Origin: an uncultured Ruminococcus sp.
GTDB taxonomy: Bacteria; Bacillota; Clostridia; Oscillospirales; CAG-272
Length of the DNA: 64,000 nucleotides
Assembly: GCA_964621165.1 (NCBI GenBank)
Contig: CAZULC010000001.1
Coordinates: 204,281 to 268,280, forward strand
Direction: 5' to 3'
Positions 23,690 through 23,796 of this stretch are shown here, piece after piece. Both the position numbers and the translations under genes were made by a program. How positions within the stretch are numbered: position 1 is the stretch's first letter; every line of letters starts with the position of its first letter. The notes below the pieces were generated by a model, which saw only the letters and a list, made by a program, of their open reading frames with translations, made no database searches and was not told where the DNA came from.

Positions 23690-23796
23690 GGGTGGGTAGT
23701 GGGATTAGGACGTGGAGTAGTTCAAATTGATTGGGAGGAGTACGCGCTTCACTCAACCCCACGTATCTCCTGACTTCCTCACCTCGCCTCCCCGCC
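23690..23796. repeat. Family A solo remnant with the hairpin deleted (upstream of the dnaA promoter)
   Basis: GGGATTAGGACGTGGAGTAGTTCAAATTGATTGGGAGGAGTACGCGCTTC is joined directly to ACTCAACCCCACGTATCTCCT. It aligns to 36808-36935 and 16180-16225, apart from a gap of about 22 nt at the hairpin. Confidence 0.7.

Follow-up and report, generated by a model that had tools for sequence, protein, structure and literature searches.

The 107 bases at positions 23690–23796 of the window (the whole 64,000-nt stretch of DNA that was analysed) are probably a decayed relic of a MITE-like repeat, reduced to its two arms by hairpin-promoted slippage or microhomology deletion, as judged by comparison with other copies of the same repeat. 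A non-coding, palindromic, MITE-like element would once have filled the space separating the divergent promoters of rpmH and dnaA, and everything between the 5' half of the palindrome's stem and base 11 of the right arm would then have been removed. Both ends of the deletion appear to fall in a direct repeat of 4 nt, CTTC, of which one copy stays. The putative route is replication slippage, or microhomology-mediated deletion, over an inverted repeat that can form a hairpin, and it would involve no transposase.

The copy between the rpmH and dnaA promoters

The window is a replication-origin neighbourhood: Pfam identifies yidC, yidD and rnpA on the minus strand, followed on the plus strand by dnaA, dnaN, a small conserved gene, gyrB and gyrA. 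On the rpmH side, rnpA is confirmed by Pfam, and an L34 gene is present in the syntenic locus of a relative (L005, see below). The copy sits between the -35 boxes of the two divergent promoters, ending 28 nt from that of rpmH and 16 nt from that of dnaA; the first-pass annotation had estimated the latter distance at about 20 nt. The features of this region are:

23632–23661, minus strand: rpmH promoter, TTGACA-18-TATAAT, matching the consensus at 12 of 12 positions
23690–23750, plus strand: G-rich left arm ('A-type'), including the 5' palindrome half GCGCTTC at 23744–23750 (BLAST and MAFFT alignments)
23747–23750, plus strand: deletion junction with a single CTTC, where the solo copy at 36808–36935 has two (36855–36858 and 36878–36881) flanking the missing 23 nt
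23751–23796, plus strand: C-rich right arm ('B-prime type') without its innermost approximately 10 nt, GTTCCCCTTC (alignment to five further ends that share this arm subtype; BLAST)
23813–23841, plus strand: dnaA promoter, TTGACT-17-TATAAT with a TG extension, 11 of 12
23887–25575, plus strand: dnaA (Pfam Bac_DnaA and Bac_DnaA_C)

An intact member of the repeat family consists of a variable G-rich arm, a palindrome of 18–20 nt (18 nt in the core, GCGCTTCTTGAAAGAAGC), the sequence TGTGCAAGAACTTT, and a modular interior of 300–350 nt that starts with TGTGCAAGAAC. In two-ended copies there is, in addition, the inverse palindrome with a C-rich arm, and what we call a solo is a G-rich arm, a single palindrome and a C-rich arm; there are three solos in the window, with palindromes at 14824, 36852 and 51606. 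The arms are homologous among copies yet mosaic, and they sort into subtypes. Three hairpin-bearing copies serve for reference:

36808–36935, plus strand: solo, palindrome at 36852–36871; its block 36859–36881 is missing from the copy upstream of dnaA
16180–16610, plus strand: two-ended element with the same arm types as that copy; palindromes at 16223–16240 (left) and 16539–16556 (right)
14780–14890, plus strand: third hairpin-bearing solo, palindrome at 14824–14843

The first-pass annotation had aligned the copy with the solo at 36808–36935 and with the left leader of the element at 16180, and both alignments were borne out. In BLAST, the left arm (23698–23750) matches the left arm of the two-ended element (16177–16229) with 92.5% identity over 53 nt (E about 1e-16), and the solo (36807–36864) with 83% over 59 nt. 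On the right, 23747–23790 matches 36878–36923 of the solo with 82.6% identity over 46 columns, found by BLAST via a Logan contig (L001), and the right arm matches the reverse complements of 18091–18131 (84% over 43 nt) and 28304–28333 (87% over 30 nt). By these alignments the similarity of both arms to other copies is far beyond chance. An A-type left arm is paired with a B-prime right arm in the copy upstream of dnaA, and likewise in the 36808 solo and in the 16180 element.

The deletion junction and its possible origins

MAFFT alignments place one clean 23-column gap in the copy, where solo bases 36859–36881 (TTTCAAGGAGCGCGTTCCCCTTC) find no counterpart. GCGCTTC (23744–23750) directly abuts ACTCAACC (23751–23758), which puts the junction at 23750/23751; this direct joining had been noticed previously, with the missing block put at about 22 nt. 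The further claim that exactly the palindromic core had been cleanly lost did not hold, as the loss is asymmetric. The solo palindrome (36852–36871, GCGCTTC-TTTCAA-GGAGCGC) has a 7-bp stem, of which the copy retains the first 7 nt; the loop and the 3' half of the stem (13 nt) are gone, and with them 10 nt at the start of the right arm. In the solo a direct repeat frames the lost stretch, GCG(CTTC)TTTCAAGGAGCGCGTTCCC(CTTC)ACTCAACC, and one CTTC is left in the copy. At a random junction, microhomology of at least 4 nt has a chance of about 1.6%; a match of 4 nt can arise by chance.

Comparison with other ends of the family indicates what was there before. GCGCTTC is found in 18 of the 25 family ends. 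The sequence CTTCACTC occurs in four ends (12117, 28340, 36871 and 44939); three of these read CTTCACTCAAC, like the copy upstream of dnaA, and belong to the same arm subtype. At the innermost part of the arm most ends read GTTCCCC, or something close to it, and this copy does not. Because 7 nt of the palindrome are kept and the innermost GTTCCCC is missing, the copy derives from one that bore the hairpin.

A second hairpin-less copy came from BLAST of all arms against the window followed by clustering, an approach used because screens by purine/pyrimidine richness and by a regular expression for the inner arm motif were too strict or too noisy. This copy and its nearest solo are:

47588–47656, plus strand: arms-only copy, ...GACGATGGAA GCGC GTTCCCCTTGTCC..., with a single GCGC at 47640–47643 (arm-BLAST cluster, sequence, alignment)
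51572–51650, plus strand: related solo with a degenerate palindrome, GCGCTTCTTTAAAAATGCGC, at 51606–51625 (alignment)

Nine arms match the 47588 copy on both strands, and it has no palindrome. The related solo reads ...GAAAAC-GCGC-TTCTTTAAAAAT-GCGC-ATTCCCCTTGTCCCC..., with 12 nt between the two GCGC; in the 47588 copy the palindrome has collapsed between these two GCGC at the base of the stem, again a 4-nt direct repeat. Both hairpin-less copies fit the signature of slippage, with a direct repeat at both ends, one copy of it retained and a hairpin between. Their junctions (GCGC/GCGC and GCGCTTC|ACTCAACC) differ, so that two deletion events gave two junctions, as independent events would (n = 2). 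Arm-based BLAST clustering found no junction identical to that of the copy upstream of dnaA elsewhere in the window, and neither further arms-only copies nor a recurrent junction in approximately 617 kb of related contigs.

These results divide the original interpretation, which was of hairpin-mediated deletion or excision by a specific process, with junctions that differed at every deleted copy taken as the outcome that would speak for random decay. A palindrome-associated loss from a hairpin-bearing copy stands; a specific excision that left a footprint is not supported, as the deletion ends in a CTTC repeat and the only other hairpin-less copy, at 47588–47656, has a different junction (n = 2). 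As far as these comparisons go, the copy upstream of dnaA most likely decayed by a generic slippage or microhomology route and not by a site-specific reaction.

Deletions between short direct repeats around a hairpin-forming inverted repeat are a classic product of replication slippage, known from the loss of palindromes in E. coli. Tn10 and Tn5 likewise undergo precise and nearly precise excision that is independent of RecA and transposase, proceeds by slippage between short direct repeats and is stimulated by inverted repeats. The events proposed here resemble it in that endpoints at short direct repeats are joined by an inverted repeat, one repeat is kept, a palindromic remnant is possible and no enzyme of the element takes part. 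They differ in that the repeats, CTTC and GCGC, have only 4 nt and belong to the element itself, not to a target-site duplication, and in that the event is deduced from sequence comparison. Two published accounts describe polymerases that slip in vitro on templates in which direct repeats flank a hairpin (PMC4134008, PMC13465473).

Two versions of the slippage or microhomology route are conceivable. In two steps, recombination between near-identical terminal palindromes would have produced a solo, which would then have lost 23 nt; in one step, a larger CTTC/CTTC deletion of several hundred nucleotides would have crossed the folded full element. We infer that the immediate ancestor was either a solo or a full element. 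The deletion is presumed to be the work of slippage and not of hairpin cleavage with microhomology repair, though cleavage by a nuclease of the SbcCD type followed by such repair would yield an identical product.

The same spacer in relatives bears intact hairpin ends. After the source's own DnaA, the only match at 100%, the nearest DnaA relatives are at 78%, 76% and 68% identity (L002, L004 and L005, respectively), and all are metagenome assemblies or MAGs labelled Eubacteriales. On the rpmH side, the flank and the A-type left arm at the start of the L002 contig are homologous to those of the window (AAAAAATTGGTTGGGGTGGGGTAG...); next come an intact left palindrome, approximately 800 nt of element, the right palindrome, likewise intact, with its C-rich arm, and the dnaA promoter, which alignment shows to be conserved in L002 and L004. 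L004 has the same intact right-end palindrome and C-rich arm, and in both relatives this right end lies about 50 nt upstream of the promoter. A 31-mer from the conserved dnaA promoter had no match in metagenome contigs. L005 has a two-ended element of 600 nt beside the rpmH promoter; elsewhere in its syntenic 20-kb locus, the spacers that correspond to insertions in the window are short and have neither the core nor G/C-rich arms. Because these empty spacers are without arms, the arms are part of the inserted element and not a pre-existing target.

The simplest history from these alignments is that the ancestral rpmH–dnaA spacer held an element, which would have been cut down to its arms in the lineage of the window; this ancestral state is judged from paralogous copies and from relatives at 76–78% DnaA identity, not from a true ancestor. 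Orthology of the insertion across the relatives is likely on the same grounds, with the proviso that shared occupancy is no proof of it, because nearly every spacer in these genomes has an element. The comparison shows that the dnaA promoter tolerates a neighbour that bears the hairpin as well as one reduced to arms. The relic presumably has no function, and the neighbouring dnaA promoter is both intact and conserved.

The leading alternative, which we consider unlikely, is that a transposase, or a recombinase or nuclease specific for hairpins, excised a mobile core bounded by hairpins, the arms being a separate palindromic element or a preferred target. The hairpin region is indeed absent from two copies. 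The core of approximately 30 nt is almost invariant in many MAGs of Clostridia, where arms and interiors vary and the core sometimes occurs without G-rich arms, and it thus behaves as a recognised end. The 47588 copy, moreover, resembles a precisely restored GGAA-GCGC-GTTCC site. Excision by an enzyme is, however, hard to reconcile with two junctions that differ, each within a short direct repeat, with a stereotyped junction at the element termini recurring neither in the window nor in the 617 kb of relatives, and with an asymmetric deletion that kept half a stem and took 10 nt of arm. Nor does nested insertion predict the single-ended elements, whose arm is on one side alone. Pfam scans of 46 ORFs, the main long ones of the window, gave no transposase, RAYT or TnpB, and no protein recurs beside the core in the 617 kb of related contigs. 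Bacteria, besides, rarely repair the donor sites of cut-and-paste transposition into footprints.

A particular form of this idea, in which the G/C-rich arms would be a palindromic element in their own right, with a GCGC centre specifically targeted by a second, hairpin-ended element carrying the ~30-nt core, strikes us as quite improbable. If it were true, the hairpin-bearing solos, the 47588 copy with its GCGC alone and the copy upstream of dnaA would be footprints or restored sites, and a hairpin-recognising transposition system would be at work, such as an enzyme of the HUH/Y1 type encoded elsewhere in the genome.

It is very unlikely that the copy upstream of dnaA never had a hairpin, as an ancestral or proto form of arms only or as an empty target site. 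Arms-only sequences do exist at two loci, and the folding of the residual arms at 23690–23796 is not better than that of shuffled sequences of matched composition (z = -0.75; intact solos, z = -2.3 to -4.2). A copy that had always been hairpin-less would nevertheless not be expected to retain the first 7 nt of the palindrome, GCGCTTC, nor to be without the inner GTTCCCCTTC that other ends of the arm subtype have in full or as a close variant; the empty orthologous spacers of L005 have no arms, and relatives carry intact hairpins in the rpmH–dnaA spacer.

We give equally little credence to selected remodelling, in which a hairpin or cruciform would have been harmful between divergent promoters or the relic would now be a regulatory spacer. 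The copy does lie between two near-consensus divergent promoters, and negative supercoiling, which promotes cruciform extrusion, is to be expected between divergent promoters. Against this, L002 and L004 keep an intact palindrome approximately 50 nt upstream of the same promoter, the spacer is free of consensus DnaA boxes, and the relic shows no conservation other than that common to the family. Nothing points to selection.

Least credible of all is an artefact in which the palindrome collapsed during short-read assembly: although the source is a MAG, and related MAG contigs and Logan contig L001 break inside the repeats, Logan contigs made with a different assembler (run SRR10165008) show both junctions at 100% identity (L001 from window position 23721 onward, L112 across the entire spacer of the 47588 copy, both perhaps from the same reads as the MAG), 19 terminal palindromes and the three solos with a palindrome were assembled intact elsewhere in the window, and the asymmetric 23-nt loss is unlike the expected collapse of a palindrome.

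The repeat family

The family accounts for 21 intergenic blocks, totalling 6,673 nt or 10.4% of the window, that span positions 5232 to 63683. Left ends number 14 on the plus strand, and the inverse orientation is seen five times. Three elements are two-ended (5302/5630, 16223/16556 and 32826/33146), with inverse palindromes and inverted flanking sequence; most copies in the window are single-ended. Example blocks are:

12047–12436: family block
18073–18473: family block
44869–45267: family block
60363–60771: family block

A degenerate pattern of the end, AAGTTCTTGCNNAGCTTCTTNCAAGAAGCG, matched more than 106 stretches in MAGs of uncultured gut Eubacteriales, Clostridia and Oscillospiraceae. 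Across these MAGs approximately 30 nt alone are conserved (the palindrome plus GCAAGAACTTT), giving a near-invariant core of (C)GCTTCTTGAAAGAAGCTnnGCAAGAACTTT; arms and interiors vary and are lineage-specific, and in some genomes the core is present without G-rich arms. In other MAGs the core hairpin or a short unit is tandemly iterated, for example as two or three hairpins or as a head-to-tail unit of approximately 80 nt (L016 2858–3200; L098 2720–2900; L007 290–350). Related MAG contigs, like Logan contig L001, often end inside family repeats.

The family behaves like a non-autonomous repeat of the MITE or ERIC type, with a putative mobilising enzyme. It is apparently undescribed, with no counterpart in Rfam or in the literature searched. 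The sole Rfam match at the gathering threshold was a tRNA-Ser, the others being at chance level at E up to 5. A family element had no blastn match in plasmid and phage collections, an exact 29-mer of the left end had none in collections of genome and metagenome contigs, a full-text search of papers for the core sequence returned irrelevant primer matches alone, and a literature search combining MITE and Clostridia gave nothing relevant. Inspection of the outer edges of 16180–16610, 36808–36935 and 23690–23796, where the arm boundaries are not sharp, revealed no consistent target-site duplication. A structured RNA was considered for the interior of approximately 350 nt and rejected: RNAalifold on 13 copies gave a covariation term of +0.76, with compensatory change in 2 of 27 pairs.

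The search for a candidate transposase, as a recurrent neighbour or multicopy protein, returned housekeeping families only (ABC transporter, oxidoreductase, SLH) and one unannotated set of paralogues, and no Y1 transposase was present in the window. A protein family of approximately 500 aa is encoded at L061 71–1582, 1706–3211 and 4914–6503 (three paralogues), L014 1936–3447 and L029 5123–6703. Two of these proteins (L014 1936–3447 and L061 4914–6503) were tested against Pfam and matched no family, so that no transposase signature was seen.

Several known repeats invite comparison. The ERIC or IRU (RU-1) sequences of enterobacteria are imperfect palindromes of 127 bp with size variants RU-1, RU-2 and RU-3 (PMC2759123). 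Like the present family they are intergenic, non-coding and imperfectly palindromic, occur in short forms, in internally deleted forms and in longer forms with added blocks, and are sometimes fused to the 3' ends of ORFs; the present family, by contrast, belongs to uncultured gut Clostridia, has an interior of about 300–350 nt and is far denser, a comparison made by description and not by sequence. Wilson and Sharp (2006) reportedly described deletion and insertion variants of ERIC/IRU.

REP and REPIN elements, which are mobilised by RAYT (PMC3116915), share with the family the character of highly abundant extragenic palindromes, present as singlets and as inverted doublets that form long hairpins. 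Whereas REP palindromes are of 20–40 nt with a conserved head of the GTAG type, the core here reads (C)GCTTCTTGAAAGAAGC and then TnnGCAAGAAC, without such a head; the units far exceed those of REP in length, and the window showed no RAYT gene. Correia (NEMIS), RUP and other bacterial MITEs also have terminal inverted repeats and are non-coding, multicopy and located between genes and beside promoters, but in our case neither a consistent target-site duplication nor a cognate transposase was found, and most copies are single-ended. Finally, PATE, which derive from IS200/IS605, have subterminal hairpins in the same orientation at both ends, lack inverted terminal repeats and insert 3' of a fixed tetra- or pentanucleotide, whereas the ends of two-ended copies here are inverted, with long inverted arms, and no fixed tetranucleotide was seen to flank family copies.

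The AI-2E transporter ORF at 47712–49064 crosses a G-rich arm and stops at a TGA in the loop of a left-end hairpin (49054–49071). From its sequence, the repeat element appears to supply this ORF with its C-terminal residues and stop codon.

The relic upstream of dnaA is alone of little weight; it illustrates how the family decays from two-ended element to solo to arms only by generic hairpin-promoted deletion. The family itself, with a near-invariant 30-nt hairpin core and approximately one occupied spacer per 3 kb of the window, is the more useful by-product. Its copies tend to break short-read assemblies, and in at least one case a neighbouring ORF takes its stop codon from the repeat. The family should be masked when MAGs from this clade are annotated, and it is also a candidate for finding the mobilising enzyme.

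Other features of the window

GC skew is positive over the whole window (1–64000), with no change of sign at dnaA. A DnaA-box role was considered for the rpmH–dnaA spacer and rejected, as that spacer has no consensus DnaA box; the 1.4-kb dnaA–dnaN spacer contains two only (26278–26286 and 26572–26580).

Several further repeats were noted. Six copies of an AT-rich repeat of approximately 40 nt, spaced by 59–124 nt, lie at 2863–3384 upstream of a flavin reductase gene. Three tandem units of 106 nt (93% matches) occupy 40095–40410, between the start of infB and an upstream gene of the L7Ae family, and a periodic repeat of 24 nt (also of 12 and 18 nt) at 39500–39797 on the minus strand is a coding low-complexity tract in the N-terminal region of infB. 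In the relative at 68% DnaA identity, the gyrB–gyrA spacer (L005 16640–17000) has a different long inverted repeat with arms of approximately 150 nt, unrelated to the family.

A second short motif, TTTTTGGAC-N4/5-GTCC...TATAgGCTGGG, contains a GGAC/GTCC palindrome and is found in the window at approximately 26118–26180 and 28815–28860, in L002 at 460–500, and in L113 at 840–870, 1000–1030 and 1100–1140. Its sites, in the window and in relatives, lie in the dnaA–dnaN spacer and beside repeat elements.
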